A stretch of 64,000 nucleotides of DNA, from IMG/VR virus record IMGVR_UViG_3300045609_000068, positions 18,501-82,500 of that record; one strand, 5' to 3'. Numbering within the stretch: the stretch's first letter is position 1; the number at the start of each line of letters is the position of its first letter. A model generated the notes under the pieces. That model did not search any database. It was not told the origin of the DNA and saw nothing but the letters and a program-made list of their open reading frames with translations. Source of the DNA: a virus. Its lineage: Duplodnaviria > Caudoviricetes. The translations under genes were made by a program, and so were the position numbers. This document shows positions 1,708-48,719 of this stretch, piece by piece.

Positions 1708-2021
1708 CCAGGCATAGGCTTTAACGATTAATATATCGTGAGCACGTTATGCGCTCCGTTTTCAAAAGTTGATTTGTCCGCCTCGCTGTAACCGAAGACG
1801 GATGCAATCTCATTGAATTTCTCACGGGCGATTTTCACCAGCCCGTCTGCTATCTCCGCGTTAAGAAACAGCGCGAGAGAAAGCATTCTAAAATCCTTCT
1901 CCATAGCTCATCCTCCGTATCACCCAGTCGGGTCTCTGGGCGATAAATCTATACCCTTGCGCCTCGCTGTAGGTCTTGAACGACCGTACAACATGTCCAA
2001 AGGCGTCTAGGACTATGTATT

Positions 2022-2453
2022 TCATTTTGCAGGCTTTGCGATGTACATTTTGTATTGGTCAAATGCTGCAAGGTAGTCCTGATACTCGTCTGTCTCTCCG
2101 ATTGTATCATCGAAATTATCGGTGTCTTCGAGAGTTGAAATTGCAGCAATTTTGGTTGACAGATCAGCGTGACCGCTCTGAATTTCACGGGCAATTCTAT
2201 CTGGAAGCACTTCGTACATGCCACCCATATCTTGGCACTCCCATAACACTCTGTCAGCGGCATTATCAAGCGATACCGACGCTTCGTGGAACTGCATTTG
2301 GCTCCACTCTGTAGCACGTTCTTCGCGCTGGGCGTCACTGTCAATGGCATAGATTGCCGTTACACTTGCAACTGAAATTGCTAACACTGTGAATAACTCT
2401 GTCATAATATTCTTCATTTTGTCCAGCGGCTCCCACACGTGAGCGAGCCACAA
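2022..2453 (-). CDS. Hypothetical protein with an N-terminal hydrophobic segment
   Basis: LFTVLAISVASVTAIYAI followed by an acidic domain. Confidence 0.6.
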   Translation of the reverse strand: MWLAHVWEPLDKMKNIMTELFTVLAISVASVTAIYAIDSDAQREERATEWSQMQFHEASVSLDNAADRVLWECQDMGGMYEVLPDRIAREIQSGHADLSTKIAAISTLEDTDNFDDTIGETDEYQDYLAAFDQYKMYIAKPAK

Positions 2454-2786
2454 CCTGCGCTATATTGGTTAAATTGTTGTCTGTTACGCCCACTTTGCGC
2501 AATTTGTTCCCTCGAAGTGGTCAAACCTTACATGGCTGGAAACACGTTTCCGTGTCCGTTTTCCCATGCAAGTATTAAAGATAAAACGCTCTGTTTCACG
2601 CCTTTCTCTGGGCGTGAACAATTCAGATGTGCTGCACTCGCAATGATACGAGTGAGATGTCTTTGCCGAGTTGAAACGGCTACCTAATAATCCCTTCATA
2701 ATTTCGTGTTTTTACAACCGCCCCACCGAAGTGGAGCACGCACCGAGCCTGATGTCTGTTTATACTCGCCCGGTCGAGTGTATGTC

Positions 2787-3509
2787 TTATGCAATCTTTG
2801 CAGCAGCCTTTGCAGATGCTTTCTTTGCTAAAGGTGATTTAGCAATAGAGTTTTCACCAACAGTGGCAAATCTCCAAGCACCGTTTTCACGTATCACCTT
2901 TGCCCATGTTGCGGTCTCTGATTTTGGAGTTGTGTTTACCCATGCAACTGCAAGCTCTGAAACAGCCTTTGCGCTTTCGTCAACTTGCTTGAGCGTTGAT
3001 GTCACGTACACGCTTTGTGCCAAGCCCGTGAATAACGTTTTAGCACTCCAGGCGACGTCTGTCTTCGCTTTCTTGTCAACTGCATTGACAATCGGACATA
3101 ATACAAACTGAGCCACAGCTTTGTGAAGACCGTCTTTGTCAGTCGTAAACAAACGGTAATCTTTGTCGTGCAACTTTGCAGTTACGGGAACGTTCTTCGC
3201 AATCTGAAGAACGCCTTCCTTTGTGAGACGTGCCGACCACGCCGTAATAACATCTTTCGCAACTATCTGATTGCGTCTGATATGCACGCCCAGAGTGACA
3301 AAAGCGTCTAATATCGACATATCGCACACCTTGCCTCTCATGCCTGATATCTGCTTACATACCTGAGTCAAAGACTCGGACTTAACGGTTAATTCACGTG
3401 CAATACTAAAAATCTGTTTTTCAGTTAAATTTGTCATAATTCGTGCCCGTAATGCCGATAGCGCAGCTTTAGTTATTAATTTAAAATTCGTGACTGCAAA
3501 CGAAATCAA
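2787..3509 (-). CDS. Hypothetical basic protein
   Basis: 240-aa ORF; first gene of the leftward cluster. Confidence 0.7.
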   Translation of the reverse strand: MISFAVTNFKLITKAALSALRARIMTNLTEKQIFSIARELTVKSESLTQVCKQISGMRGKVCDMSILDAFVTLGVHIRRNQIVAKDVITAWSARLTKEGVLQIAKNVPVTAKLHDKDYRLFTTDKDGLHKAVAQFVLCPIVNAVDKKAKTDVAWSAKTLFTGLAQSVYVTSTLKQVDESAKAVSELAVAWVNTTPKSETATWAKVIRENGAWRFATVGENSIAKSPLAKKASAKAAAKIA

Positions 3510-17749: not shown

Positions 17750-19099
17750 ATGCCGACAAACACAAAATTAGGTGGTGTATTCACCACCGATCTTGACAAT
17801 AACATTGGTGGAACTGTGAACGTCTCTACTGAAAACGTATGCGGAATCATCTTCGACACCAAGATTGTGGGCGGTTTGGCAACAGCACTGGGCACTGGTA
17901 CCACTGCTGCTACGAAATTCGCCAATGGAGCCGTAGTCGAGCTTAATACCTCCAAGGACGTTGAATCCGCAGGTATAGACGCCACGGTCATGAGCGGTCT
18001 CCCGTTGCACCATCTGAGTAATTTCTTTACTCTTGCAGGGGAAAACCAACGTATATTCGTCTCTTTCATGGACTCGACTACCGACACGAACTTCGAGGCC
18101 GTCGAGAAGATGGTATTGGCTGCAAACGGTATCATATACCAGATTGGTGTATGGACGGGTGAAGCTTTATGCAAGAAGACCGATTCCACTGTCACTATCG
18201 TTGACGGAGGCATCCTTTCCAAACTTCAGGCACAGGCCGAAGTAGTGGGAGGAAAAATCGGGCACGTCAACTACGACGGGAACGCGCCTATAAACATTCT
18301 GGTGAATGCCCCTATCGTTACGGATGCAACGTTCGATGTGGCTTCACTCCCTGACATGTCATCGCTGAACCTGCCAAAGGTTTCCGTGATTCTCGGACAG
18401 CCGGCAACAGATGCGGTACATACGATACAGGCCGCTCTTGGCGGTATGTGTCCAGTGGGCAATGTCGGTGCAGCCCTTGCCTGCCTTGCAGTGGCACCTG
18501 CCGACATAAGCATCGGATGGGTCAAAGAGTTCAATCTGTCCAGCGTTATGACCAATGCGGAACTTGGATTCGGTAACTTGGACATAGATACCACATCGAA
18601 GGCATTCAAGGCTGATGCGGCATTTACGAACATCAAGACTCTCGGATATAGCGCACGCAACACCATCCATAGCAAGGGATATATTTTCCTTACGAATTTG
18701 GACGGAATCGAAAACGGTGTGTTCTTCTCCAGCGACCAGACGCTTAGCACTGGTGACTACAGGACTCTGATGCGTTGCCGTGTTATGCACAAGAGCCGCA
18801 GGTCTGTCAGAAAAGCCCTTCTTCCTTTCGTGAACCAGAGCGTGGAAGTTGATTCGACAACGGGCCAGCTTTCTTCATCCATGATTACGACATACCAGAA
18901 TGCAGTCTTGGCGGCACTTGACGACAATATGGTTGAACCTGGGACATCAGTTCCGCAGATTAGCGGACGTACATGCACTATCTCGTCCACACAGGATATC
19001 CTGACGAATGACGAATTGCAGATATCTTATAGCCTTGTACCAGTAGGATGCACTTCGGTCATCATGGTGACGGAGGGGTTTGTTACTTCTGTATCTTAA
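17750..19099 (+). CDS. Tail sheath protein 1 (DUF2586-like)
   Basis: 449 aa upstream of the tube gene; motifs VGAALACLA and RVMHKSRRSVRKALLP. Confidence 0.75.
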   Translation: MPTNTKLGGVFTTDLDNNIGGTVNVSTENVCGIIFDTKIVGGLATALGTGTTAATKFANGAVVELNTSKDVESAGIDATVMSGLPLHHLSNFFTLAGENQRIFVSFMDSTTDTNFEAVEKMVLAANGIIYQIGVWTGEALCKKTDSTVTIVDGGILSKLQAQAEVVGGKIGHVNYDGNAPINILVNAPIVTDATFDVASLPDMSSLNLPKVSVILGQPATDAVHTIQAALGGMCPVGNVGAALACLAVAPADISIGWVKEFNLSSVMTNAELGFGNLDIDTTSKAFKADAAFTNIKTLGYSARNTIHSKGYIFLTNLDGIENGVFFSSDQTLSTGDYRTLMRCRVMHKSRRSVRKALLPFVNQSVEVDSTTGQLSSSMITTYQNAVLAALDDNMVEPGTSVPQISGRTCTISSTQDILTNDELQISYSLVPVGCTSVIMVTEGFVTSVS

Positions 19100-20422: not shown

Positions 20423-21124
20423 TTACTGGTTTACCTCATCGCAAACTGGCTCCTCATTCTGTACATACCCCTTTTCCGTAAGCAATTTGCGGATAAAGTC
20501 GAGACCTTTCTGGAACACTACCGTCTGGTGGGCCACATTCCAAACCCCGTTCAGTACATACCCTTTTTCAATCACGTTGAAATACTTGCTTTCGATGTAT
20601 ATCTGACGAGGCAGATTTTCTATCGTGAGAACTTTTTCCAATCTAAGGAATTTGAACAGATTGTTTCTCCCTATATCTTTGAAGTTTAAGATTTTTGCGG
20701 CCTTTTCCATGCTGATTGCACGTTTGCTATGGACTACCGCATCGTAGAAGTCAACCTTTTCGGCATCGGACTTTATCTTCTCTTTCTGCTTCTTTATCGT
20801 TTCGGACTGCTTTTCAATCACATGCTGCTTATGGTCGATCACAATTTTCTGCTCCTTGTTCTCGATGGCAAGTCTCTGACGCTCCTTTTCCTCTCCAATC
20901 CAGCACTCGGCACGTTTGATACGGTCGTCTATCTGATAGGAAGGTGTGTCCTTTTCTTTCAGCTTCTTTTCACATTCAATAAAATAGAGCCTTGCTTGTT
21001 TCCCTCGTTCCGATTGAGACATCATAGAAATTTCCTTTGCAGCGTCAATAGTCAACACGTATTCTATTTTATTATTTCCGCCCCTTCCTGTCTCTTTGTT
21101 TTGCTCGCCCAAAAGGGCGAGCAA
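20423..21124 (-). CDS. Antirepressor-like protein (partial AntA plus KilAC/ANT domain); appears 5'-truncated
   Basis: EYVLTIDAAKEISMM...GKQARLYFIECEK (AntA C-half); KVDFYDAV...IGRNNLFKFLR...TVVFQKGLDFI (KilAC). Confidence 0.7.
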   Translation of the reverse strand: MLALLGEQNKETGRGGNNKIEYVLTIDAAKEISMMSQSERGKQARLYFIECEKKLKEKDTPSYQIDDRIKRAECWIGEEKERQRLAIENKEQKIVIDHKQHVIEKQSETIKKQKEKIKSDAEKVDFYDAVVHSKRAISMEKAAKILNFKDIGRNNLFKFLRLEKVLTIENLPRQIYIESKYFNVIEKGYVLNGVWNVAHQTVVFQKGLDFIRKLLTEKGYVQNEEPVCDEVNQ

Positions 21125-21190
21125 AATTTAAAGCGACTATTTTCCCATCAACATAATGTTGGTTAGTAAAAACAATAAAAATATTAATAT

Positions 21191-21946
21191 ATGGACAATC
21201 AATTGGAAGTGAGCGACACTATAACCGTAAAAGAGACTATGACTTCATTGGAAATAGCAGAAGTTACTGGTAGACAACACTCAAACGTATTGCGTGATAT
21301 TCGTAATATATTGGAGCAGATAGAAGATAAAGCCCAATTCACTTTTGAATTGGGGTCGTATTTAGACGCAAACGGTCAGTCAAGACCTATGTATAGTCTT
21401 ACAAAGAAAGACAGCATCCTGCTTGCAAGCGGGTATGATGCTAATCTTCGTGCTAAGATAATCAATCGTTGGGAACAACTGGAAATAGAAAAACGCAATG
21501 GTGGGTTTGAAATACCGAAGACTTATTCGGCGGCCCTTATGTTGGCAGCAAAGCAAGCAGAAGAGATAGAAAATCAGCAGAAGCAATTAGAAATTAAAGA
21601 AACACAGATTGCAGAACTCAAACCGAAAGCGACATATTACGACAGCATCCTTGCAAGTAAAAGTGCTGAATGTGTTACCAAATTCGCGAAAGCGGATTAT
21701 GGAATCAGCGCGCAAGCAATGAATAAACTTCTGCATGAATTTGGAATACAATATAAAGTAGGTGAAACGTGGCTTCCTTACATACAGTTTGCAAAGTGCG
21801 GATATACACAGACAGAAACAATTCCGATTAAGACAAATCATGGAGAAGAAAGCAAATTGCAGACTAAATGGACGCAAAAAGGCCGTCTGTTTATTTATGA
21901 ACAGATGAAGAAGCACGGATATTTGCCTATAATAGAACAAAACTAA
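21191..21946 (+). CDS. Rha family regulatory protein with a KilAC domain
   Basis: MTSLEIAEVTGRQHSNVLRDIR...YSLTKKDSILLASGY; C-terminal KPKATYYD...TKWTQKGRLFI. Confidence 0.88.
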   Translation: MDNQLEVSDTITVKETMTSLEIAEVTGRQHSNVLRDIRNILEQIEDKAQFTFELGSYLDANGQSRPMYSLTKKDSILLASGYDANLRAKIINRWEQLEIEKRNGGFEIPKTYSAALMLAAKQAEEIENQQKQLEIKETQIAELKPKATYYDSILASKSAECVTKFAKADYGISAQAMNKLLHEFGIQYKVGETWLPYIQFAKCGYTQTETIPIKTNHGEESKLQTKWTQKGRLFIYEQMKKHGYLPIIEQN

Positions 21947-21971
21947 TTCAATAATTTAAAACATTAAAGAC

Positions 21972-22223
21972 ATGGAAATTATTATTCAATCTATCAACAC
22001 CCCATCGGGAATGATTAAGATAACGAAAGTCAACGAACGATACAAAATGTATTTTGATGGAAGATATATAAGTCCATTGGAATTGCTATCATACGCATTG
22101 AATATGGATGGAGTTATGGCATGGAAAACGATTCACTATGCCGATATTCTTGCATCATCCAAAGACAATTTGTATTGGAAAATGAGAGATGCTGTATGTA
22201 TGTGTATTACTACTCAATTTTGA
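21972..22223 (+). CDS. Hypothetical protein
   Basis: 83-aa ORF followed by a terminator. Confidence 0.55.
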   Translation: MEIIIQSINTPSGMIKITKVNERYKMYFDGRYISPLELLSYALNMDGVMAWKTIHYADILASSKDNLYWKMRDAVCMCITTQF

Positions 22224-22257
22224 GTTGATGGTGATTTTCAATTGATTACATTATTAT

Positions 22258-22292
22258 GGGCTGCCTAAGTTGAAATTAGGCAGCCTATTTTT
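22258..22292 (+). terminator. Intrinsic terminator
   Basis: GGCTGCCTA-N9-TAGGCAGCC followed by TATTTTT. Confidence 0.65.
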
Positions 22293-22598
22293 ATCAATAG
22301 CCATAGTCCAAAAATGGACTATGGTGATTTTCAACGAGTTAGACCCGCCAATTTTGGCGACAATCCTTTTATAGATAGTTAGTTATGAATTATTGACAGT
22401 ATCAACTTTAAGTTATTGTAATGGTATATCGCTAAATAGCGATATGCTTGATTTACAGCTACTTATGGTTAAAGTACAATCAAAATCATTAACCAGCAAA
22501 TCAACCAATAAACTAACCAACAAAATTATGTTGTACATACATTAACGATATTATCGAGCAGCAGAACGAGCAGCAGATTAACCAGCACCGATAGGTTA

Positions 22599-22645
22599 CA
22601 AAGATAACCCCAAAGATAACCCCAAAGATAACCCCAAAGATAACC
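22599..22645. repeat. 12-bp tandem repeat, about 3.9 copies
   Basis: CAAAGATAACCC three times plus CAAAGATAACC. Confidence 0.9.
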
Positions 22646-22888
22646 ACGTCTTATTTCCTGATAAAGATTTTGAAGCCACTAATAGTTTTTCCGTTAATGT
22701 TAATATCATTTAAAATACAGTTGGTTTAACATTATAAGCGATTATTTTATTATAAATATTGCAGCAAAGAATACAACAAAGGAAATAATTGCGTATATTT
22801 GTATCAGAATAATTAAATGTTATGTGCATTTTTCTACTGGGAAATACACAAATTCTAAGTACGTAAACATACAAATTCTTACATACAC

Positions 22889-23245
22889 ATGTGTGAACAA
22901 AATCTTGAAATTATTAAAACTAGAGATATCTTTCTAAAAAATGGGGAGAAATCTGATGTAGTTCTGTTAAAGGATCCAGAAGGAGTTGTGGATATGCACT
23001 TTACCTTTTGTTTGAAATACGTTGGCGATAACGTCCAGACTCAGACGCATTATAAAGTGGCAGACAAGTCTAGTGCTGATTTTATTATTGAAACGAGGCC
23101 CAATTCCTATACTGAGCTAAAGCAGCCATTTCGCATTGGGACATTCGGAAAAGAAGAAAAAGGATTGTTTATAAATTTTAAAGTATATCCATGCGATGAA
23201 AGCAATACGCACCACATGTACTTGTCTTTTTTAACATCAAAATAA
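22889..23245 (+). CDS. AT-rich accessory hypothetical protein (weak DUF6864-like resemblance)
   Basis: 118 aa; TATATTTG at 22794-22801 upstream. Confidence 0.6.
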   Translation: MCEQNLEIIKTRDIFLKNGEKSDVVLLKDPEGVVDMHFTFCLKYVGDNVQTQTHYKVADKSSADFIIETRPNSYTELKQPFRIGTFGKEEKGLFINFKVYPCDESNTHHMYLSFLTSK

Positions 23246-23254
23246 ACTAATGTT

Positions 23255-23680
23255 ATGGCTCTAATTACAGAAGGTGAAATCGAAGTAAGCGAAACTATTT
23301 GCAATCTGACGGTAGTACCTATACAGATAACAGAAGATAAACTTAAAAATATACTTACGCAGCATATTGAAAAAATAAAGAAATCGCACGGGTGGATTCC
23401 AGCGTTGGTCACTGTTGTGTCTTTCGTATTGACTATAGATACATCTGATTTCCATGATTCATTCGGCTTTAATGCGGACACCTTAAAAGGATTTTTTGGA
23501 TGCCTTATTTTGCTCTTCTTTTGTTATTTCCTTTACGTTTCATGGAATTGCATCAAAAATAGAGACAGCGTGGATAATATCATAAAAGATATAGAAAACA
23601 AACAAGTAGCTAAAAAAGATAATTCTATAAAGAGCTTTTTTAAAAACTCCGGAAAGCGTAAGATTGATATAAAGGCTTAA
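23255..23680 (+). CDS. Two-TM membrane protein (accessory)
   Basis: WIPALVTVVSFVLTI and FFGCLILLFFCYFLYVSW. Confidence 0.7.
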   Translation: MALITEGEIEVSETICNLTVVPIQITEDKLKNILTQHIEKIKKSHGWIPALVTVVSFVLTIDTSDFHDSFGFNADTLKGFFGCLILLFFCYFLYVSWNCIKNRDSVDNIIKDIENKQVAKKDNSIKSFFKNSGKRKIDIKA

Positions 23681-23867
23681 TTGGAAATACGGAATTACCA
23701 TTAACGTGATTGCATTATTCGCCTTTGTCGCGAAATATCTTTTCCATCCAAAGGACTAGCATACAACAAATGGGATCAGTAATGCTGACCCCATAAATTT
23801 TATATATTTGTCTCAACACCGATTGGTTAACTTTATTTTGTATTAACGGATATTTCTGTTAATATGT

Positions 23868-25577
23868 ATGAATACTTTTGCCGAAAGAATACAACATGGT
23901 CGATTTTTCGATATATTTGCGCTACTAAATCTTGTTATGGATATTAATGGTGAATACATAGAGGAAAACTTTCTTCATCCCGAAAAATACGAACTGGTTT
24001 ATTCCAACGAAGTGGAGGCCAGCATCCTTCGAATCATGAGGAGACGGAAACATGAGTTATTCGGTGATAGTCACGACCCGTCGGAAGAGCAGTGGAGAGA
24101 GTGGGCCGATTATCTTGAAGAGAACTATATAAGGATGATACATACGGATATAGATCCGTTTTGCATACTTATCAGACACGACTTGCTACTGATACGAAAT
24201 TCATACGGAAGCATTATTGATACGATTGAATGGTTTAAATCCATTGGTATGCCTTATAATTTTGATGAAAGAAAATTTAATAGCAATTTTATGAACATAA
24301 TGCGATCTTATAATTCAGATTGGAAGTTATCAATTTCTGATTTGGATTTATTTAAGGTCGATAAAGAAAAAATTGAGGAAGAAAACAAAAAAAGACAGGA
24401 ATTAGAAGAAAAAAATAAGAAGAGACTAGAAGTATTATGTGCTGGACGCGACAAGTATCTTGCAAAAAAGGCAGAAGAAAAACGAATAAAAGAAGAGGAA
24501 GAAAAAAGGTTGTTAAGACTTCGCAAAAAGGAAGAACGAAAAGCCAAGATTATTGAGGAACGGCAGAGAATAGTTACAGAAAACTATTTAATGAGTTTCC
24601 CTTTCCCTTATATAAACGATGAAATAGGCATAAAATTTATTAATGATTACAGAATTGAAAATGGGCATCTCCCGATGTTTTATATTTTGTGCAATTATCT
24701 AAAGATATATGGGCATTTGCAATGTATCGACAATTTGTCAAAAGCATATTGTGTATATATGGAGTATGAGCATGTCAAGTACGGTCCAACTGAAGAAATA
24801 TGGGAAAGTTATGGGATTACAAGAGTTCAGGCCAAGGCAGCAATGAGAAAACATAAGCCGAACAGGATGCTGAAATTAATCCTCGACCACGAAGACTGGA
24901 ACTATTATGAGGTTAGAAATATGAAATTCATATCTAAAGATAATTTCGACATAGAACTTTTCTGCAAGACAGAAAAAGTGAAATTGAATTTTGTTCAGTT
25001 TTTCTTTATGCTGAAACTTGTATATAACAGATATGGGCTGTGTCGTATATACACTGAAGATTTAGAGCCGTTTAGAGAATCGAAAGATAGTGTTTATTGC
25101 TATGATTACATAATATATGAAGACTTTAATATATATAACTTTTCTGATGCAATAAAAGATTTATCAAAGATTGCAAATCTGCATAAACTTATTGAAGGAG
25201 CAAAGACTATCCAAGATGATTATATTATGAATGAAAAATATTGGGATATAGATCTGAAAGAAAAAATGCCGGCGTTCGACATACATAATATATACAGAAT
25301 CCTTTTTACCATATTCAATGATGTAATGGGAGAATGGATAAAAAATAATAAAGACATTTTCATTGAAGATAATTTTCATAGGACACCTAATGTTAAGTCA
25401 ATTTTAAAAGAAGCCTCCGTTCCTCTTACGTGCCTGGAAGTATTTCAAACATACACAAAGGATTACCCGGAAGATAAGACTATAACGTTGGAGAAGGTGA
25501 GAAGTATATTGAAAAGTAATTCCAAGATAATCAGACGTGGTGACATATATAATACGAAACTTTTTTACAAAATATAG
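23868..25577 (+). CDS. Large AT-rich hypothetical protein with a central coiled coil
   Basis: 569 aa; K/E-rich stretch; TATATTTG at 23803-23810 upstream. Confidence 0.75.
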   Translation: MNTFAERIQHGRFFDIFALLNLVMDINGEYIEENFLHPEKYELVYSNEVEASILRIMRRRKHELFGDSHDPSEEQWREWADYLEENYIRMIHTDIDPFCILIRHDLLLIRNSYGSIIDTIEWFKSIGMPYNFDERKFNSNFMNIMRSYNSDWKLSISDLDLFKVDKEKIEEENKKRQELEEKNKKRLEVLCAGRDKYLAKKAEEKRIKEEEEKRLLRLRKKEERKAKIIEERQRIVTENYLMSFPFPYINDEIGIKFINDYRIENGHLPMFYILCNYLKIYGHLQCIDNLSKAYCVYMEYEHVKYGPTEEIWESYGITRVQAKAAMRKHKPNRMLKLILDHEDWNYYEVRNMKFISKDNFDIELFCKTEKVKLNFVQFFFMLKLVYNRYGLCRIYTEDLEPFRESKDSVYCYDYIIYEDFNIYNFSDAIKDLSKIANLHKLIEGAKTIQDDYIMNEKYWDIDLKEKMPAFDIHNIYRILFTIFNDVMGEWIKNNKDIFIEDNFHRTPNVKSILKEASVPLTCLEVFQTYTKDYPEDKTITLEKVRSILKSNSKIIRRGDIYNTKLFYKI

Positions 25578-25580
25578 CTT

Positions 25581-25835
25581 ATGAAAAAGAAATATTTAAA
25601 AATAGTGTTGATAGTAATTTGTTTTATCTTATTTGGGTGGTATGTATATTCTTCAAGCCAAAGAGTTGAACAAGGGTACAAAGGAGCAGATGAAACGACA
25701 AAGAGAGTTGAAAAGTATTCCAACCAAGCTTTGAAAAACGGGTATAATGAAACGTCTGGCGGCATAGGTGCTAAACCTGTTGTTGTCAAAAAGTCAGATT
25801 TGGAAAAAGATAATATAGGACAGGATGATGAATAG
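25581..25835 (+). CDS. Small single-TM protein homologous to a tape measure segment
   Basis: N-terminal TM helix; aa 33-67 match TMP aa 1269-1303 at 21/35 identities. Confidence 0.75.
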   Translation: MKKKYLKIVLIVICFILFGWYVYSSSQRVEQGYKGADETTKRVEKYSNQALKNGYNETSGGIGAKPVVVKKSDLEKDNIGQDDE

Positions 25836-25854
25836 TTTCACCCCGCCCCATATT

Positions 25855-28800
25855 CTACACTTTGCCCATAAGAGAAAGCTGTGAGTTCACTTGTGATGTA
25901 AGCATAGCAATAGCTTGTGCAAGACGATCCTCGACAGACTGAATCATTGCTCTTTCGTCAGCGTTACCAGCAATCGTAGTTTTGTCGAAATTGGCAAGAT
26001 TTTGTATTGTTATATTGATTTGCGTCGGAGTTGCGGCTTGCCTTCCGTAAGTGTTTTCGTAACCCTTGTTAGGATTGCTGCTCCCTCCGGTTCTGCCGCC
26101 TTTTCCTCCTGTTGCTGCTGGAAGTGAATTAGTAGCGTTACTAGAACCCGAATTATTCCATCCAGTTCCAAACCCATTGTCAACAGTCCCTTTTTTGTTT
26201 TTGTTGTTCTTTTTAGCACCGGGTATGGATTTTACTATATTATTTTCTTTAGTTCCAGGTCTGGTAATATATGCCAGTTTACCTTTATTCTGTTTCTTAT
26301 CGTCAATTGCTTTTTGCAGTGGATTATATGGCTGATATCCCATATTCCAAGCATATCCGAACTTTTGTTTTCCTGCCTTGTATGGTATCTTTACTTTATT
26401 ACTTTTTGGTTGGAGAACATTATTTGTACTAGGATTCTCTCCTGAATTCCAATTTACATTAGTCCATCTCGAAGCCTCAATCTCTTGTTGTTTAAGATAT
26501 TCTATCAAAGCCTTTATTCTACCAGCAACGCCTTGTAACCCAGGTATGTTATCTAATGAATTGGCAATATTTTCGAGAAGTGATACATGCGCGTTAACCG
26601 TATTAGGAACTTGTATTCCAAGCGCATTTAACATGTCGTAGAAACCTTCCCATTGTGGTTGCCCGTTCTTGAATTGCAAGAATACATTTTGCATCCTTCC
26701 ATACATATCAGGCAATTTGATTGGTATTGTCCCTAGATAACTACTAGCCGCATTCATAAATTTATCAGAATACAGTCCAGTAAGATTAACTAAATTCTGA
26801 TAAGTTTTCCAAACTTGTGTAAGTTTATTATATGCGCCAGAATACCATTGAGTAAATTCAGATAAATCAGGTGAATTAAATATCTGTTTATACCCATAAT
26901 TGTTTACATCTTTCCCAATATTAAGAGCAGGATTAAATTGCTCAATCATATTGTTAATAGCCTCTTTATTCTTTGCAGATAATTTTCCTTTTGAATTTTC
27001 TACAATAGAAGTTATCTTTGATTCTGCATTTTTTGTTTCATTTGATTCTGCTCCATATCTATATACTGATGCACGAGCTATTAAATTACGAACCCCGTTA
27101 TAGTATTTATTATCGACCCCTAATGTCTTATATGTTTTAATTTTGGTTCCATCTTCTGCTGTGTATTCTTGCAATAAATTTCCACCAGCATCAGTTTCTA
27201 ATTGATTCTTGATAGCTGAAAATGAATAGTTTTTGCTATCTTTACCATAAGCATATTTGTATGGAACAATATATTTATCGTACCAGTTTTGTAAAATAGG
27301 CAGGAAATGCGTATCTTTTCCTAACTTACTTGTAAGTTGTCTGAAATCAGATATTTGTGACAACTTTCTTTTAGATGCTTTTGGTTTATTTGATACGGAT
27401 GGTATATCACCGACATAAGTATTATTATTTAGTTGCGGATTTGATTTCAACCAATTTGTAAGATCAATTGGTTTTGTCCCAATTCCGCCAGCCATTTGAT
27501 TATATCCATTTTTTAAAGCGGTTTTAGAATATGCTTTAACCCTATCGCTTGTCTTGTCAGCATCTTCGTATCTCTTGCTAATATGTTTAACATAAGCAAC
27601 AAGTAAAGCTATACCTGCAAGTGCTGCAAGATACGGTAATGCTGCTGTAAACATTCCAGCAATTTTTGCTAAGAAAATAGGTATTCTTAAAATGGAATTT
27701 TTTATCATATTAATTAATGGCATCAGCGTAAACCCTGTGAGCATGGCGTTTCCTGCCTTGTATGCAAGTCCCATCCTTGCACCAGTGCCTAATTTGTTCA
27801 TTGCGGCGAAGCGTTCGATAAGTGCGGAATTACGGAATTGTTCTGTACGTCTCATATCCCTCAATACGTTCATGTAGGCATTGCGTTCTGCAACCAATCT
27901 GCGTTCGTTAGCATAGTTCTGTTCAGCCCTTGCGCCATAGTGTGCGGAAAGTTCCGACTCACCAGCTCTTTCCCAATATTCAGAACCTTTGGTGTACATA
28001 AATCCGTTTGTATGGGCGTTACGTATATAATTATAATACGAGCCTCCGTTTCTATACATCGCATTTTGGCGTTCCAACAGTGTATTGGCACTTGCTCGTT
28101 CAGCGGCAATTGCCTCTGGAGCAGCGACCGCCCCTGCAACGGCGGCACTCGAACCTCTTGGATGGCGAAGCGTTGCCCACAGCAAAGAACCGTTAAGAAG
28201 AAGGCTTGTCAGCCCTCCTCCCAATCTTGACATTCCAGAAGTTGCAGCCCCTCTGCGGACTACAGATTTAACGGCATTTGCCTCCATTACTCTCGGAACA
28301 GCCCCTCCAGCCATCATCGCACCTGCAATACGGGCAGAACTGTAACGTGAAGCGATTCCGCCTCCAGCAGCCAAGCCACCAACGGCATACGCGCCACCAG
28401 CTACACCTGCCGCACCGGGCAGCAATCCTCTGAACGAAGACAGCATTCCGAGCATCTGCACGAACGGGGTAATGAGATAACCAATCTGTGTCATTGCCAT
28501 CTGCATGACAACAATCGCTTTGATGAATCCGGGGAATGCGTTATATATCTTTAGCCAAATGCTAACAGATGCTTTGAAAATACCCAATATGGCTTTGAGC
28601 AAGTCGAATACGTTCTTCAAGTTCTGCACAGCTTCTGGCTTGGCGAGATATTTAAGCGCATCTCCCATAGCTCCCTTAATGGTTTTCTGCAATCCACTGA
28701 ATACGGTTAATGTATCATCGGTCAACGAGCTCTCGACCTGTTTCCACAGACCCTCAACGGTGTTCTGTTTCTTTAGGGATATTTCATTTGCTATTCCGTT

Positions 28801-31374
28801 TGCCGCAAGGTTAGCATTTGCCACGCTGCGGGTCTTCTCGACATCAATGGTAGCGGCGGCAGCACCTTGTGTTGCGGTTACACGGAACAGTCCGGACATC
28901 CATTTCGCTATATTCTTATCGTTGACTTTAGGATTATGCTTGATTTTCTCTATAAGGTCAAGCATATCGACAGGACTTCCGTCCTTGTTCGTCAGGCTGA
29001 TGCCAAGCGCGTCCCAGTATTTCTGCGATTTCTTTGTTGGTTGAAGGACATTCTGATACATCATACGCAAGGTAGTACCAGCACGGCTTCCTTGAATACC
29101 AGAGTTACCCATGACACCTATCATCGCCAACGCTTCGGCAAGGGAATTTACATTTCCTTTCTGATGGTTGGCCAGATAAGCGTAACCGCCTCCATAGGAC
29201 AATGCCTCCGCCAGCTGAATCATGTTGGTGTTGGTAGAGGTATATGTGTTGGTAAGCATATCCGCCAGCTTCGGCATATCCTTCGGCTTGATTTTGAACT
29301 CCGTCATGATGTTCGTCATCTTATCGGCCATAGTTGCCAAATCCTGATCGTCAATGACTGCCACATCTGCGATAGGCTTGATTGCCGCTGCGGAAGTGGG
29401 GACATCCAAACCTGCCATCGCCATGAAACGTGCCGCACCCGCTGCATCGGGGGCGGTGAACTTAGTCTTCCTTGCCACGTTTCTTACGTTCTTAGCCAGA
29501 TTTCCGAAATCTCCGTTGAAGTTGTTTCCTCTATAGTTATTCCTGTAAATAGCTTTAGCCGTTTCCATCAAATTCTGATATTGTACGGATTGGCCGAAAG
29601 TATCGGAAATGACGCTCATGGCACCGCCTACGGCAAACATGGTTCCCATGCCTTTAGCCATTGAAAGAGCGGCTGGGGTGGATGCTCCGAACGAGGTGTT
29701 GCCAGTAAGTGGGTACGCCCAACGGCGAGCCCTTGCGTAAAGCCCTTCATTATTGCCTCCAGCCAAAGCCATTCCCTCTTTCCCTGCTGGGATTCTCATC
29801 CTTGCATATCCCGTCCTTGCGTAAGGCAACATGCCATACGTGCTTCCAAGGCGTGCTGCGGTTTCAGCCGAACGTGAACCATAAGGAAGAGGCTGTTCGC
29901 TTGTATATCCGGGCCCAGAAGTCGTGCGCTGTCTGGAACCTCCTCCTGTAGCTAATGTGACGGGTATAGGTCTTTCCAAAGTCATCAGCGCTTCCCTGAG
30001 CTTGGCAATCTGCTCCATGGCACCAGTGATATTGAGATTTACTTTGACATCGTTAAGTCCCTCACCGAGCTTTTTGGAGATCGCGTTTCTGTTAGCCGCA
30101 CCCTCTTTGGCGTTTGTACCCCATACAGGTTCTATCCTCGCCTTGATGGTAAGGGCTTTCATCTTTTCGGCAGCCTTTGCTAAGGAGGCCTCGATGCCTG
30201 CCGCATCCACAATGGCCTTTACAGGGACTTCCACCGCAGCCTTTGGAGCTTTTATCCTTTCGGCGGCAAGTGTACCTTGCAGCTTGACGGTTCCGATAGC
30301 CTTTACACTGTCCGCGTTGATTTCGGCAGTCGCCTTGATGTTAAGTTCGGACTTAACTGGAAGAACACGGGTAACTTCGGCAACGGTCTCCACAACGTTA
30401 GGGCCAGTGGGTTTTGGCAGTACACGTGTAACTTCGGCAACAACAGGTATCGTTATTTCAGCAGCACCCTTCGCGGCCTTTGCGCCTTTTCCTCCCTTGC
30501 CAGCTACACCTTTTGACACTGCTTGCATCTGCTTGGTGATGTCCTCCCAGTTGGACATTACATCTATCTTGTAAGAGAAAGTCTTTTTCTTTACAAGGGA
30601 TAGTTTTTCGAGCGCGGATGCCAGTGAACGGATGGCGGTGGCGTTAGCCTGCGTCGTGGAAGGCGCTGGCGTTATGCCGACATTGACCATCCCTTCCGTC
30701 TTGGATGACGAAGCGCCTCCTGAAATGAGACCGGGGTATTTCTTGACTAAGTCATTTTGAAGTTTTCCGAGTCTTTCCAGTTCTTTGTTATAATTGGTAA
30801 TCTGTCTGTTGGCCTCGGCAGTCAGGTTGGCGTAATGCTTTTTCTGGTTTTCCCTCCACTTGTTGAGCTTGTCCCCGGAATACCCCATAGGTGTAGCGGT
30901 AGACACTCTGCTGGACTGCGCATTTAACTTATCAAGCTCTTTTTGCGTATCCGTAATTTTTTTACGGTAATCCTTTATGCCTTCTTTGTAAGCGTTCAGC
31001 TGCGATTTCCTCAAACCCCTTCCGTCGAGTTTCCCGACGCTTTCCATGAACTTCGCAGCACCAGCCTGACCTCCGAAAACGGATTCAAGGGTGTCGCGCA
31101 TCCGTATCGCGGACGCCGTTACCATCCTTTCCATGGTACCAAGGTCCGTTCGTATTCCTTCGGTATTAATCTTAGGGTTGATCTTTGTCGCTGCATTGGA
31201 AAGCGACTGTATGGTCTTTGTTATGGACTTTACATCGCTGTTAAGCAAAGAGAACCCCTTGCCCTTTCCGGACAGTTGATGTATTCTACCAAGCAAAGCG
31301 TCCAACGCCTGCGATACTGGCAGTGTGTTGGCGGTTATATTATAGTTAACGATATAATTTCTTTCAGGAGCCAT
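25855..31374 (-). CDS. Tail tape measure protein
   Basis: 1839 aa; TP901/PhageMin_Tail-like core TKFTAPDAAGAARFMAMAG...GNSGIQGSRAGT; hydrophobic TM segments. Confidence 0.92.
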   Translation of the reverse strand: MAPERNYIVNYNITANTLPVSQALDALLGRIHQLSGKGKGFSLLNSDVKSITKTIQSLSNAATKINPKINTEGIRTDLGTMERMVTASAIRMRDTLESVFGGQAGAAKFMESVGKLDGRGLRKSQLNAYKEGIKDYRKKITDTQKELDKLNAQSSRVSTATPMGYSGDKLNKWRENQKKHYANLTAEANRQITNYNKELERLGKLQNDLVKKYPGLISGGASSSKTEGMVNVGITPAPSTTQANATAIRSLASALEKLSLVKKKTFSYKIDVMSNWEDITKQMQAVSKGVAGKGGKGAKAAKGAAEITIPVVAEVTRVLPKPTGPNVVETVAEVTRVLPVKSELNIKATAEINADSVKAIGTVKLQGTLAAERIKAPKAAVEVPVKAIVDAAGIEASLAKAAEKMKALTIKARIEPVWGTNAKEGAANRNAISKKLGEGLNDVKVNLNITGAMEQIAKLREALMTLERPIPVTLATGGGSRQRTTSGPGYTSEQPLPYGSRSAETAARLGSTYGMLPYARTGYARMRIPAGKEGMALAGGNNEGLYARARRWAYPLTGNTSFGASTPAALSMAKGMGTMFAVGGAMSVISDTFGQSVQYQNLMETAKAIYRNNYRGNNFNGDFGNLAKNVRNVARKTKFTAPDAAGAARFMAMAGLDVPTSAAAIKPIADVAVIDDQDLATMADKMTNIMTEFKIKPKDMPKLADMLTNTYTSTNTNMIQLAEALSYGGGYAYLANHQKGNVNSLAEALAMIGVMGNSGIQGSRAGTTLRMMYQNVLQPTKKSQKYWDALGISLTNKDGSPVDMLDLIEKIKHNPKVNDKNIAKWMSGLFRVTATQGAAAATIDVEKTRSVANANLAANGIANEISLKKQNTVEGLWKQVESSLTDDTLTVFSGLQKTIKGAMGDALKYLAKPEAVQNLKNVFDLLKAILGIFKASVSIWLKIYNAFPGFIKAIVVMQMAMTQIGYLITPFVQMLGMLSSFRGLLPGAAGVAGGAYAVGGLAAGGGIASRYSSARIAGAMMAGGAVPRVMEANAVKSVVRRGAATSGMSRLGGGLTSLLLNGSLLWATLRHPRGSSAAVAGAVAAPEAIAAERASANTLLERQNAMYRNGGSYYNYIRNAHTNGFMYTKGSEYWERAGESELSAHYGARAEQNYANERRLVAERNAYMNVLRDMRRTEQFRNSALIERFAAMNKLGTGARMGLAYKAGNAMLTGFTLMPLINMIKNSILRIPIFLAKIAGMFTAALPYLAALAGIALLVAYVKHISKRYEDADKTSDRVKAYSKTALKNGYNQMAGGIGTKPIDLTNWLKSNPQLNNNTYVGDIPSVSNKPKASKRKLSQISDFRQLTSKLGKDTHFLPILQNWYDKYIVPYKYAYGKDSKNYSFSAIKNQLETDAGGNLLQEYTAEDGTKIKTYKTLGVDNKYYNGVRNLIARASVYRYGAESNETKNAESKITSIVENSKGKLSAKNKEAINNMIEQFNPALNIGKDVNNYGYKQIFNSPDLSEFTQWYSGAYNKLTQVWKTYQNLVNLTGLYSDKFMNAASSYLGTIPIKLPDMYGRMQNVFLQFKNGQPQWEGFYDMLNALGIQVPNTVNAHVSLLENIANSLDNIPGLQGVAGRIKALIEYLKQQEIEASRWTNVNWNSGENPSTNNVLQPKSNKVKIPYKAGKQKFGYAWNMGYQPYNPLQKAIDDKKQNKGKLAYITRPGTKENNIVKSIPGAKKNNKNKKGTVDNGFGTGWNNSGSSNATNSLPAATGGKGGRTGGSSNPNKGYENTYGRQAATPTQINITIQNLANFDKTTIAGNADERAMIQSVEDRLAQAIAMLTSQVNSQLSLMGKV

Positions 31375-31394
31375 GATTTATATTTTTAGTGAAA

Positions 31395-32711
31395 TTAAAC
31401 TTCGAATGTTTCAAGTGCCGTGATTGCCGTTGAGGAATCGGCGGGTACGACATCGGTTTTTATGTTGATGCTGTCCGTCTCGATGATATTCCCGTTTGCT
31501 GATACGGAAACGTTTCTTCCGTCGATCTGTTTATATCCCAACGGATTGACCATGGCGGTGTCTATCAGCGACAAAACGTCGTTGACTATCTGCGCCTTGC
31601 CTGTTTCGGTAATGTCCCCGGTTGTCGTTTCAAGATAGAACGTGGCATTGATATAAGGTATAAGCGCCCTTCTTACAACCCTGCGTATCTTGTGCATGAC
31701 TCTGTTGCGGGACAACGAGCAATAGTCCCCGTCGGAAAGCGTCGTGTCGTTGCTGAAATAAACGGCACCTGGCTTGGGCACATAGGTGACTGGGACGACA
31801 TATCCTTTGTTGGCTATCTGATTCAGTCGGTATTGGCTCATTCCGCTTATCGGGGAGTAATCGTCGCTTGACGATTTCAATGTGCCGAAACCGAGTTCCG
31901 CGCTTTTGAAGTCGTCGTTCTTGTTGAGGTCGTATTTTGAAACGTATGCGATGCTTTCCTCCGCTGGTGCAAGGCACAAGCAGGCCAAAACCTTTCCGAG
32001 CATCCCAACTGGAGAATAGTTTATGTCGCTATTTTGCATGGTATGTACAGCATCTGTTCCGTTCTGCCCAAGGATGACGCTCAACTTCGGAAAATCAAGG
32101 TTTATGGCGTTCGGAATGTTTCTGTAGTCCATGATATACGAATCAGCCCCGTCCGCTTTTGTATGCGCGGTATTTGCATTCAGCACGATATTCATGGGAA
32201 GCAGCGCCGATGCCGTCTTCCCGATGATTCCAGAAAGTATTTCCGCACGTGCCTCTATCTCGCCTAGCAGCGCAGTGAATCCGATTGTTCCGCCCGTTGA
32301 CTTCCATAAGTCCTGTTCCGTCCATATACCTAGCTGGAATAACTTCCCTGATGCTTTCTGCTGGAAGTCCTCTATACAGGTAAATGACGGGGAGCCGTTG
32401 TCAACGCAGTTTGCGAACATCACGTATATGGCCGCATCCTTTCCGATATAGCTATAAAATTCCTTGATATGATAATAGGGTATGCCGCCCATTATTCCTC
32501 CCTCTTTGATTCCGAGATACACGGCCTCGTCGATGTTGTTTATCTGCTGTACCTGTCCGTCTCCGAAATTCAGAGCCGCAGTGTCATATCCATAAAAGGC
32601 ATTCGACCTTAACCCGTAGTCGAAAACCATTCCGCATACGCTTTCGTCGTATGAAACATCCAATACGTTGCTTTGCAGTTTGCCTACGTTCGCCTTTCCT
32701 ATATTGCCCAT
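31395..32711 (-). CDS. Tail sheath protein 2 (DUF2586-like paralogue)
   Basis: Colinear motif matches to 17750-19099; start set at MGNIGK (32711) after the ACTATATA motif. Confidence 0.75.
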   Translation of the reverse strand: MGNIGKANVGKLQSNVLDVSYDESVCGMVFDYGLRSNAFYGYDTAALNFGDGQVQQINNIDEAVYLGIKEGGIMGGIPYYHIKEFYSYIGKDAAIYVMFANCVDNGSPSFTCIEDFQQKASGKLFQLGIWTEQDLWKSTGGTIGFTALLGEIEARAEILSGIIGKTASALLPMNIVLNANTAHTKADGADSYIMDYRNIPNAINLDFPKLSVILGQNGTDAVHTMQNSDINYSPVGMLGKVLACLCLAPAEESIAYVSKYDLNKNDDFKSAELGFGTLKSSSDDYSPISGMSQYRLNQIANKGYVVPVTYVPKPGAVYFSNDTTLSDGDYCSLSRNRVMHKIRRVVRRALIPYINATFYLETTTGDITETGKAQIVNDVLSLIDTAMVNPLGYKQIDGRNVSVSANGNIIETDSINIKTDVVPADSSTAITALETFEV

Positions 32712-32728
32712 ATTAATAGTATTTCTTA

Positions 32729-32736
32729 TATATAGT
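32729..32736 (-). promoter_or_regulatory. ACTATATA putative phage late promoter (sheath 2/TMP)
   Basis: Exact motif 17 nt upstream of the ATG at 32711. Confidence 0.6.
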
Positions 32737-33060
32737 GTTTTTCGGAGATTTGAAGTCATTACGTTTTTGATGCGGTTTGTAAGTTAATGTAAGTTAATTA
32801 ATACACCTTTGGTTCATAAGGTAACTATATCAAGGTAGAGCATAGGTTGGAGTAGCTACCAATCGACAAGGGGTAATCCGAAGGCCCCTTGCTCTTTCTT
32901 TATTCTTCGGGGTAACTTAAACATTCGGATTATGGACACTTCTTGATTTCACCTTATTTATAGTCGGCATCAGCTTAATGATACCCAAAAGCCCTTAATG
33001 GCTGGGTTAGACCCGTCGAGATGATTTGAGGTCAGTTTCGATGTTTCCGAAAATCGGGCA

Positions 33061-46759: not shown

Positions 46760-48132
46760 GAGTCCGCGGAATCCGAATAAATGGGAACTTCACTGACGTG
46801 GCCAGATGCCGCGTGAGTTACGATGATGCAGAAGTTCATAGTAGTGAGTACAATGCCAGCAACGCTTGGATGGTCAATTTTGGCAGTGGTGATGTCAACA
46901 GCAACAACAAGTACTACAGTTATAGAGTGCGGGCGGTTGTAGCATTTGACGGATGGTGGCCCTTTGTTTTATCTGTGCGCGAAGCGTTTTTTGATTGTAT
47001 AAGAACCAAGAGGACTTCACCGCAGGGACTTGAGTATATGGATATAGACCTGTGGGATGTGGATCTGTTGGCCTTGCAACTGTATATGCGTGCATATACC
47101 ATATCCGCATCTACCTGTTTTATGGTAACATTTCCAAAATTACGTGAAGTTTTCGCCGCAGCGTTCAGGGACCGAATAATACATCACTGGATATGTATCC
47201 GTCTGAATCCTTTGTTCGAACAAAGATGCAAGGAACTTGGAGATGTAAGTTTCGCATGCCGAAAAAAATTCGGAACCAAAGCGGCGATTAAACGTGTCCA
47301 TGACGGGATGCTGCGTGTTTCTGGAAATCTGCAAAATGATGCCTGGATATTCAAGGGAGACATTATCGGATTTTTTATGCACATAAGGAAGGACTTGATG
47401 TGGGCGATGCTATATGCGCTCATCACAGAAAAATACGAAGGGCCGTTCATGGACACCCTTTTATGGGTGACGAAAATGGTTGTTATGAATAACCCGGAAA
47501 AGAATTGCATTGTAAAATCGGATAAAGATTATTGGAAAATTATAGATAAGGAAAAAAGCCTTTTCTTCATTCCGGATAATATGGGCGGTCCGATTGGAAA
47601 CCTTACCACACAGTTATTTGCGGGTTATTACATGAGTTTTTTCGATGAGTTCGTGGAGAAATATTTCCGTGGTAAAAATTATGAATACACGCGTTCCGTT
47701 GACGATTTTATCATAATTTGCGATGATAGGAACTTTTTGAGGGAATCTGTACCGAAGATGTCGGATTTCCTTAAAAAAGAATTATTCCTAGGTTTGCATA
47801 ATGACAAGATTTATTTTCAGCCTGTCAAGCATGGGGTAAAATTCCTAGGGAATTATATCCATCCCTATAGGCTCCATATAATCAACAGGACACTCGGACG
47901 TATGATTAACCGTATCAGGGGATTCGAAGAAATGGCGAGTCATGGAGAATTGAACGGGATGCAACTGAAAAACATGGTAAATGTACTAAACTCCTATATG
48001 GGGTTCCTTGTGCAGACACGTAGCTATAGGATAAGGCATGATATAACCTTGAACTTGTCCAAAGATATTTACAAATATGTATATATCGTAAATTTCAGAA
48101 AATTCAGAATCAAAAATAAATACAGATTATGA
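46756..48132 (+). CDS. DGR reverse transcriptase
   Basis: REVFAAAFRDRIIHH, IFKGDIIGFF, GGPIGNLTTQLFA, TRSVDDF, VKFLG; ATG at 46756 overlaps the avd TGA. Confidence 0.93.
   Translation: MRVRGIRINGNFTDVARCRVSYDDAEVHSSEYNASNAWMVNFGSGDVNSNNKYYSYRVRAVVAFDGWWPFVLSVREAFFDCIRTKRTSPQGLEYMDIDLWDVDLLALQLYMRAYTISASTCFMVTFPKLREVFAAAFRDRIIHHWICIRLNPLFEQRCKELGDVSFACRKKFGTKAAIKRVHDGMLRVSGNLQNDAWIFKGDIIGFFMHIRKDLMWAMLYALITEKYEGPFMDTLLWVTKMVVMNNPEKNCIVKSDKDYWKIIDKEKSLFFIPDNMGGPIGNLTTQLFAGYYMSFFDEFVEKYFRGKNYEYTRSVDDFIIICDDRNFLRESVPKMSDFLKKELFLGLHNDKIYFQPVKHGVKFLGNYIHPYRLHIINRTLGRMINRIRGFEEMASHGELNGMQLKNMVNVLNSYMGFLVQTRSYRIRHDITLNLSKDIYKYVYIVNFRKFRIKNKYRL
46840..46945 (+). ncRNA. DGR template repeat (TR)
   Basis: Adenine-rich (AAC) copy of the VR, inside the 5' part of the RT ORF. 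Confidence 0.93.
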
Positions 48133-48719
48133 AACATGTTATCGAAGACACGATTTTTGGGAGACGTCCACACAAATCGTACACAGTGAACTACAATGTA
48201 GACGGAGACAAATGCGACAGCGTTATCGTAGAAAGTGCATCGTTGACCGAATTTATCAATGCCATAGGAAAGGGCATATCCCAGACGGAGATACAAGATA
48301 TTGAAGACGGGCTTGATGAATACAGGACGGAGAAGACCACGGACGAAGAGAAACTGGAATGCGAGAAACAGAACCTGATCAGACTTATCACCGATTACGA
48401 TGAAAGCGGCAATGTAAATTCTTTCCTGCTAAACGGAAATTCGTTATGGATGGGAAAGGATATAAGGACAGGTCTGGTACTAAGATTTAATGCAGAAAAA
48501 GCAAACGGGAAAACAGACACGACGTTATGGACCGAAACGCAGTGCATCCCTTTGGCTATTGATACCGCCATCGGGCTTCTGTACAAAATAGAACTGTACG
48601 CCTCTTCCTGCTATGACAATACCGCACAGCATAAAGCTAACGTATTGAAAATTACGGAGCTTGATGGCGTTAGGAAATACGAGTACAAAACTGGATATCC
48701 TGATAAAATCAGCATATAA
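48129..48719 (+). CDS. DUF4376-like tail fibre assembly/accessory protein
   Basis: VNSFLLNG...TTLW...IELYASSCYDNTAQHK...YKTGYP. Confidence 0.6.
   Translation: MKHVIEDTIFGRRPHKSYTVNYNVDGDKCDSVIVESASLTEFINAIGKGISQTEIQDIEDGLDEYRTEKTTDEEKLECEKQNLIRLITDYDESGNVNSFLLNGNSLWMGKDIRTGLVLRFNAEKANGKTDTTLWTETQCIPLAIDTAIGLLYKIELYASSCYDNTAQHKANVLKITELDGVRKYEYKTGYPDKISI

Follow-up and report, generated by a model that had tools for sequence, protein, structure and literature searches.

Introduction

How a phage's tape measure protein (TMP) opens the inner membrane is poorly understood, and the first structural evidence, which places T4 Imm beside the transmembrane (TM) helix of the TMP, dates only from 2026. 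The closest described systems are exclusion proteins that act at the TMP. Imm of phage T4 is a small inner-membrane protein that docks on the helical-bundle domain of the TMP next to TMP_TM, displacing the TM helix and disturbing the interplay of the two (preprint 10.64898/2026.03.06.709160). As summarized in PMC10883804 and PMC3594210, gp15 of phage HK97 is a predicted inner-membrane protein that is encoded by a moron adjoining the TMP gene and blocks DNA entry in a TMP-dependent manner. Ltp of TP-J34 and the lactococcal Sie2009-type proteins are prophage-encoded, envelope-located exclusion proteins that target the TMP (PMC3952083, PMC10883804). Here we analyze a stretch of 64,000 nucleotides (nt) of a Caudoviricetes phage (positions 18,501 to 82,500 of the 82.5-kb IMG/VR contig IMGVR_UViG_3300045609_000068; hereafter the window), in which a gene for an 84-amino-acid (aa) membrane protein, P0001 or the mimic, contains a copy of a segment of the phage's own TMP.

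The likeness to T4 Imm lies in a phage-encoded small inner-membrane protein acting at the TMP region beside the TM helix, which in the case of the mimic is predicted. Imm has about four helices, and no likeness in sequence to the TMP is described for it in the preprint (10.64898/2026.03.06.709160), whereas the mimic consists of a single TM helix and a literal copy of the TMP helix that follows the TM segment, and no homology to Imm was found. With gp15 the mimic shares a moron location beside the TMP gene and the prediction of an inner-membrane protein, but HK97 is a siphovirus of E. coli, the above summaries of gp15 mention no TMP-like sequence in it, and gp15 is unrelated to P0001 in sequence. 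Ltp and the Sie2009-type proteins are likewise prophage-encoded envelope proteins; Ltp, however, is a lipoprotein with a fold of its own and not a TMP fragment. The Tab/anti-Tab pair of Pseudomonas phage JBD26 resembles the mimic in being prophage-encoded, in its specificity for the TMP C-terminal allele and in the self-targeting problem (PMC10884400), but Tab is soluble, blocks tail assembly in the cytoplasm and is not a copy of the TMP. In SNIPE the membrane-targeting N-termini resemble envelope proteins of phages and hosts, for example the P22 tail needle, so that the N-terminus represents a phage entry part borrowed to reach the injection site (PMC13190303). SNIPE differs from the mimic by its nuclease effector, the only additional domain among the mimics being the C-terminal domain of about 110 aa of the copy P0008.

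Literature searches returned systems of TMP-targeting exclusion and defence (Imm, gp15, Ltp, Tab, SNIPE) but no exclusion protein described as being itself a copy of a TMP segment. An earlier reading of the window from its letters and open reading frames (ORFs), hereafter the original prediction, had held the mechanism to be undescribed; this agrees with the literature searched as regards the copy itself and has to be narrowed with respect to the site of action, as T4 Imm binds the TMP beside its TM helix (10.64898/2026.03.06.709160). We propose that the mimic is an entry-blocking exclusion protein with the self-derived mimic as its working part. New here are the recurrence of the TMP-segment copy design in relatives, its co-variation with the TMP allele and a mapped breakpoint of a helix swap.

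A tape measure segment in a small membrane protein

The TMP was identified as the 1839-aa ORF that is convergent to the mimic gene, based on PF10145 (E-value 1.7e-30, 106.8 bits compared to a cut-off of 33.2) and on matches to 11 PHROG TMP families (coordinates in Table 1). BLASTP of P0001 against this TMP returned one ungapped match between residues 27-67 of P0001 and residues 1263-1303 of the TMP, with 21/41 residues identical (51%, E-value 2e-12), and the Smith-Waterman score of 122 compares to 37.3 +/- 4.9 for 300 shuffles (z 17). Identical residues were encoded by differing codons at 12 of the 21 positions, and the nucleotide identity of the segments was 79/129 (61%). A hydrophobic helix, TM2 of the TM hairpin in the case of the TMP, directly precedes the matched segment in both proteins. 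The original prediction had described two convergent ORFs, an identity of 21/35 between residues 33-67 of the small protein and TMP residues 1269-1303, a preceding TM helix in both, differences in synonymous codons and a 569-aa gene directly upstream. All of these descriptions hold, the gap between the two ORFs being 19 nt, the alignment being the same one that BLASTP returned, and the hydrophobicity scan and the codon table agreeing with it.

P0001 has a Lys-rich N-terminus (beginning with MKKKYLK), followed by a single TM helix and the copied segment, and ends in an acidic tail of short length. Following the positive-inside rule, the four Lys residues at the N-terminus suggest an N-in/C-out orientation. 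The best explanation of this layout is that P0001 represents a putative inner-membrane-anchored copy of the TMP module formed by the second TM helix and the helix continuing from it. A single strong hydrophobic helix at the N-terminus is also present in the two other copies introduced below, P0008 and the copy at locus L030, and predicts an envelope or inner-membrane location for all three. None of these three proteins could be assigned to a Pfam, PHROG or PADLOC family, and no homology to T4 Imm, HK97 gp15 or P22 SieA was detected.

On the side of the TMP, the TM hairpin stands out within the TMP family as a local peak of conservation. The copied segment is not more variable than its surroundings, as the entire C-terminal third of the TMP is variable. 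An AlphaFold2 (AF2) model of the TMP fragment showed two helices meeting at a conserved Pro, at low confidence (pLDDT 56), and the complex prediction for the TMP fragment together with the mimic scored 0.00, which was counted neither for nor against binding. The G+C content of the TMP gene is a mosaic, with about 50% at 28000-31374 (the N-terminal two thirds) and 30-40% at 25855-28000 (the C-terminal third), the latter resembling the accessory DNA beside it. Based on this drop a recent fusion origin of the C-terminal third was considered as cause of the similarity and rejected, because the C-terminal extension has a homologous counterpart in the distant TMP P0007.

Selection on the small protein was assessed with its homolog P0004 (80 aa, contig L012), which is 54-56% identical to P0001 and has an intact reading frame. 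The ratio of nonsynonymous to synonymous substitution rates (dN/dS) was 0.33 at dS of about 1, indicating purifying selection. P0004 was the sole relative of P0001 found by a profile search of 1.84 billion cluster representatives; a second match in this search, P0005, was spurious due to low complexity. [quoted passage not shown] The P0001 region was 100% identical across all nine of the nine metagenome contigs carrying P0001, and these contigs therefore add no variation. Contig L012 has a length of 1747 nt and stops short of the TMP segment; its nucleotide similarity to the window starts abruptly within the small gene, which indicates mosaic evolution.

Copies of the same segment in related phages

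To determine the distribution of such copies, 33 IMG/VR loci and five genome loci with related TMPs were compared, using every non-TMP ORF as query against the TMP of the same locus. Barring a few borderline matches (E-values 4e-4 to 1e-2), significant matches were restricted to small proteins with an N-terminal TM helix. Among the 35 IMG/VR and window loci BLAST at an E-value cut-off of 1e-3 found nothing else, barring two borderline matches in the window (E-values 4e-4 and 1e-3), and a hidden Markov model (HMM) scan of the 4935 non-TMP ORFs of these loci likewise found no other match to the own TMP. The copies match the TMP directly after the TM hairpin, at about 575-620 residues from the TMP C-terminus.

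Three families of copies were distinguished, which have no detectable similarity to one another. Family (i) is P0001 of the window. Family (ii) is P0008 of loci L014 and L015, a protein of 214 aa that matches residues 1273-1336 of its own TMP (28/64 identical, E-value 1e-12) and whose extra C-terminal domain has no family assignment. Family (iii) comprises proteins of 71-75 aa, of which the 75-aa protein at loci L024, L030, L031 and L050, the latter a prophage of Lepagella muris, matches the own TMP with E-values of 1e-9 to 6e-11. Across the families the similarity between copy and TMP corresponds to E-values of 1e-9 to 1e-13 after composition adjustment and to z values of 15-18. Between families (i) and (ii) the TMPs share only 30% identity, and the juxtamembrane segments of these TMPs cannot be aligned by sequence. 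In all three families the copy gene is convergent to the TMP gene and located just downstream of it. A search of 400 Bacteroidales genomes with a model of the TMP segment returned six weak or distant TMP matches and no new copies nearby.

The operon partners of the copy genes differ among the families: in L014 (11904-12632, minus strand) a protein of 242 aa that starts with a TM helix, a soluble 114-aa protein in L030 (13668-14012, minus strand) and the 569-aa protein in the window. None of the three has a family match.

Allele tracking and helix swap

Variants of family (iii) were identified by database search, after which their genomic contexts were recovered. Variant A copies (P0011, P0013, P0014) are 41-49% identical to the cores of type-A TMPs and 21-37% to those of type B, and they adjoin type-A TMPs (L030, L071, L072, L050). 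Variant B copies (P0016, P0017, P0020) are 50-62% identical to type-B cores and 21-27% to type-A cores, and P0016 adjoins a type-B TMP in L070 (E-value 1.7e-13). Over their first ~120 nt the copy genes of L030 and L070 have an identity of about 90%, which falls to about 50% in the remainder. This drop marks a recombination breakpoint at which a helix of about 30 residues, which sets the matched TMP allele, was swapped. In family (iii) the nucleotide identity between copy and TMP is 60-68% and approximately half of the identical residues are encoded by different codons; the match has thus been kept at the protein level, with no recent gene conversion renewing it.

There is one exception to the tracking of the adjoining allele. 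The variant B copy P0017 is located next to a type-C TMP in L068/L053, to which it has no resemblance (E-value 1.2), and the P0017 of L068 has its match in the TMPs that other phages of the group carry and not in its own. This mismatch fits a weapon directed against other phages and not a helper for the own TMP.

Genomic insertion of the copy gene

In L030, L031 and L024 the copy is contained in an insertion of 855 bp directly after the TMP stop codon. The insertion of L030 holds the copy gene, the 114-aa gene and, as seen by eye, a hairpin followed by a T-run. Seven loci with the same TMP segment (L023, L025-28, L032, L045) have about 65 nt at that position and no insertion. As the insertion is absent from these siblings with the same TMP, we regard the copy gene as a dispensable, mobile accessory unit, that is, as a moron. 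In agreement with this the unit is a discrete insertion between conserved late genes, and the base composition deviates as well: the mimic of the window lies at the end of a low-G+C accessory region (20800-25600), which has 30-34% G+C compared to about 50% in the structural genes. This region holds genes of the antirepressor family and ORFs without assigned function.

The same slot is occupied in L048 (13666-14268, minus strand) by a predicted lipoprotein of 200 aa with an LTGC lipobox. By its sequence it could be an exclusion lipoprotein of the Ltp type. The moron slot after the TMP is thus used for envelope proteins, which adds to the likeness with Ltp and the Sie2009-type proteins.

Proposed function and alternative explanations

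Recurrence, allele tracking, purifying selection and moron status fit exclusion by a TMP decoy and speak against both a fortuitous match and a dead duplication. The same TMP module was copied each time, with a membrane anchor of its own, similarity at the protein level and retargeting by helix swap, and this combination indicates that resemblance to a particular TMP allele has been selected for. We consider it probable, though by no means certain, that P0001 is a prophage-encoded exclusion protein that disturbs the membrane insertion of the TMP by mimicry. A putative exclusion protein functionally like T4 Imm or HK97 gp15 is the best reading by analogy. The moron context, the antisense orientation to the late genes, the dispensability and the mismatch in L068 favour a role against incoming phages over that of a helper for the own TMP.

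The copy would be produced from the accessory (moron) transcription unit, probably in the lysogen, expression in the lysogen being assumed. It would reside in the inner membrane in N-in/C-out orientation, with the copied segment in the periplasm. Once a phage with a matching TMP allele ejects its TMP, the resident copy may interfere in one of two modes: it could replace the TMP's own TM2/juxtamembrane helix in the packing of the DNA conduit, acting as a dominant-negative subunit, or it could occupy a host site that the TMP helix must engage. In either mode DNA entry would fail, resulting in superinfection exclusion, and the specificity of this exclusion would be written in the copied helix and re-set by helix swap.

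Allele tracking would also be expected if the copy served counter-defence, as a decoy that titrates a factor of the host or of a rival prophage recognizing the TMP segment (e.g., Tab-like or SNIPE-like) and thereby shields the own TMP. Defences that recognize the TMP do exist, as Tab targets the TMP C-terminus and is neutralized by a phage protein (PMC10884400) and SNIPE binds TMPs at the membrane (PMC13190303). This explanation is nevertheless unlikely: the copy and the TMP of L068 are mismatched, a partner defence gene is not evident, and in each of the lineages the copy gene runs antisense to the late operon, which would be odd for a factor needed alongside the TMP.

Immunity of the producing cell would assign a different role to the pairing of copy and TMP, in that the copy would bind newly made TMP and stop its TM hairpin from inserting into or permeabilizing the producer membrane before assembly. 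The conserved TM hairpin of the TMP, the analogy to colicin immunity that the T4 preprint draws for Imm (10.64898/2026.03.06.709160) and the fact that a copy of the own allele is the rule (eight phages compared to one exception, L068/L069) speak for this role. We regard it as quite improbable, however, given that close siblings having the same TMP can dispense with the copy gene, that this gene is convergent to the late genes, that the periplasmic segment predicted from the hydrophobicity scan would be kept away from cytoplasmic TMP, and that the L068 copy is mismatched.

The layout of an N-terminal TM helix and a helical periplasmic part is also that of spanins, and the L030 copy has a sub-threshold match to DUF2570 (E-value 0.049). 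A membrane protein of lysis or another pathway (i-spanin-like or holin-like), having a generic design of TM helix and coiled coil and no functional link to the TMP, is nonetheless very improbable. The DUF2570 match has 14.1 bits compared to a cut-off of 26.6 and thus falls outside the family, the similarity to the TMP is specific and tracks the allele, and the motif ALKNGYN...GGIG.KP of the window mimic is not coiled-coil-like. Moreover, neither a lysis-cassette context nor an o-spanin partner was seen at the mimic genes, and the gene is dispensable. Finally, neutral remnants of partial TMP duplications, which recombination close to the TMP gene's 3' end would have generated, might be looked for in a recombination-prone, low-G+C mosaic region such as the one in which the gene adjoins the TMP gene, but are hardly credible given that every copy has its own start codon, TM helix and intact frame, that dN/dS is 0.33 at dS of about 1, that the same TMP segment was copied in three unrelated families with an allele-specific helix swap, and that the L030 unit ends in a hairpin and T-run.

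Several observations weigh against the proposed role in exclusion. Most relatives of the TMP are without any copy, and the phage group at large therefore does not share this feature. Neither an integrase nor a repressor was found in the examined part of the phage, and in the window the convergent genes of mimic and TMP have no terminator between them. The promoter ahead of the accessory genes is a weak candidate called by consensus match, and the motif TAnnTTTG shows no enrichment in the window (50 occurrences compared to 46 expected). Furthermore, the copied helix may be needed for something besides exclusion.

Regarding the original prediction, its expectation of co-occurrence and co-variation with the TMP among relatives was borne out clearly, with three families and allele tracking in one of them, as was that of constraint on the protein, for which it had suggested dN/dS. 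It had further proposed that absence of the gene from relatives with the same TMP allele would speak against the decoy; such absence does occur, at the seven loci without the insertion named above, and we interpret it as the dispensability of a moron and not as a refutation. Mimicry of the phage's own TMP is the rule, but the L068 copy matches the allele of another phage. The host-type promoter that it placed before the 569-aa gene is present as TATATTTG at 23803-23810, but as a consensus match without enrichment it is less secure than stated. As a whole, its reading as TMP-decoy exclusion has kept its basis in homology, co-variation, purifying selection and moron context, whereas the function itself is still a prediction.

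Neighbouring genes and genome layout

Table 1. Coordinates of the mimic, the TMP and associated features in the window.
Feature	Position	Strand	Evidence or remark
Hairpin (23770-23794) followed by Bacteroides-type -7 motif TATATTTG (23803-23810)	23770..23810	+	Consensus match
569-aa gene upstream of mimic gene	23868..25577	+	Ends 3 nt before mimic gene
Mimic gene P0001, 84 aa	25581..25835	+	ORF call; BLASTP match to TMP; homolog P0004
TM helix of mimic P0001, residues 8-23	25602..25649	+	Kyte-Doolittle scan
Copied juxtamembrane segment of P0001, residues 27-67	25659..25781	+	BLASTP, shuffles, codon table
TMP gene, 1839 aa, convergent to mimic gene	25855..31374	-	PF10145, PHROG TMP families
TMP segment copied by mimic, residues 1263-1303, directly after TM2	27466..27588	-	BLASTP, codon table
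TMP TM hairpin: TM1 residues 1228-1246, TM2 residues 1248-1262	27589..27693	-	Kyte-Doolittle scan, conservation, AF2 model

The phage is a myovirus that encodes a portal of the Mu type, a protease of the Clp type and two paralogous sheath proteins (DUF2586). Related phages lie in bacterial contigs (141-251 kb) of Lepagella muris, Prevotella sp. MGM2, a metagenome-assembled genome of Bacteroides sp. and others, and P0001 was found on contigs of up to 730 kb. We therefore conclude that these phages are prophages of Bacteroidales.

The 569-aa gene and the mimic gene (Table 1) probably form one transcription unit. The 569-aa protein has no match in Pfam, PHROG, PADLOC or Atlas. In contig L012 (positions 1-147) the gene is seemingly reduced to its N-terminal part, which ends 13 nt before the mimic gene, and the 569-aa protein is thus not needed for keeping the mimic. 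Just after the hairpin and 58 nt before the 569-aa gene lies the motif TATATTTG; as judged from the sequence, hairpin and motif are a weak candidate for the start of the accessory transcription unit.

The gene order in L014 is sheath, tube, DUF6848 chaperone, second sheath, TMP, the convergent accessory cassette, DUF6046 and baseplate hub. Relative to L014 (4724-13785) the block of accessory cassette, TMP and second sheath is inverted in the window (21191-32759), with the convergent layout of mimic and TMP retained, and consequently the genes for TMP and second sheath have a reading direction opposite to that of the remaining tail module. No convincing inverted repeats flanking the inverted second-sheath/TMP block were found. 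Both DUF2586 sheath paralogs are full-length (17750-19099, plus strand, and 31395-32759, minus strand, in the window; 1945-3318 and 4724-6049 in L014), with the second gene directly upstream of the TMP gene. Since this layout is conserved in the distant relative L014, the sheath pair appears to be an old feature of the phage group.

Downstream of a retroelement reverse transcriptase the window also contains an ORF of 196 aa (48129-48719, plus strand) that weakly matches the N-terminus of the TMP (30% identity over 60 aa, E-value 4e-4). This match is probably a composition effect of coiled coils.

Implications

It is possible, if somewhat doubtful at present, that phages repeatedly build entry inhibitors by placing the TM2/juxtamembrane helix of a TMP on a membrane anchor and retarget them by helix swap. 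If true, this would constitute a programmable, self-derived immunity by dominant-negative peptides, conceptually like the peptide fusion inhibitors of enveloped viruses, and would single out the helix following the TM segment as the part whose self-association or docking DNA translocation requires. A simple rule would then predict directly from sequence the phages that a given prophage excludes, and exclusion specificity could be re-programmed by swapping about 30 residues. One of the carriers is a cultured strain, Lepagella muris NM04_E33, which makes the hypothesis directly testable. If it is correct, the finding would be relevant for phage competition in the gut, where Muribaculaceae and Bacteroides carry such prophages, and for choosing phages that evade resident prophages.

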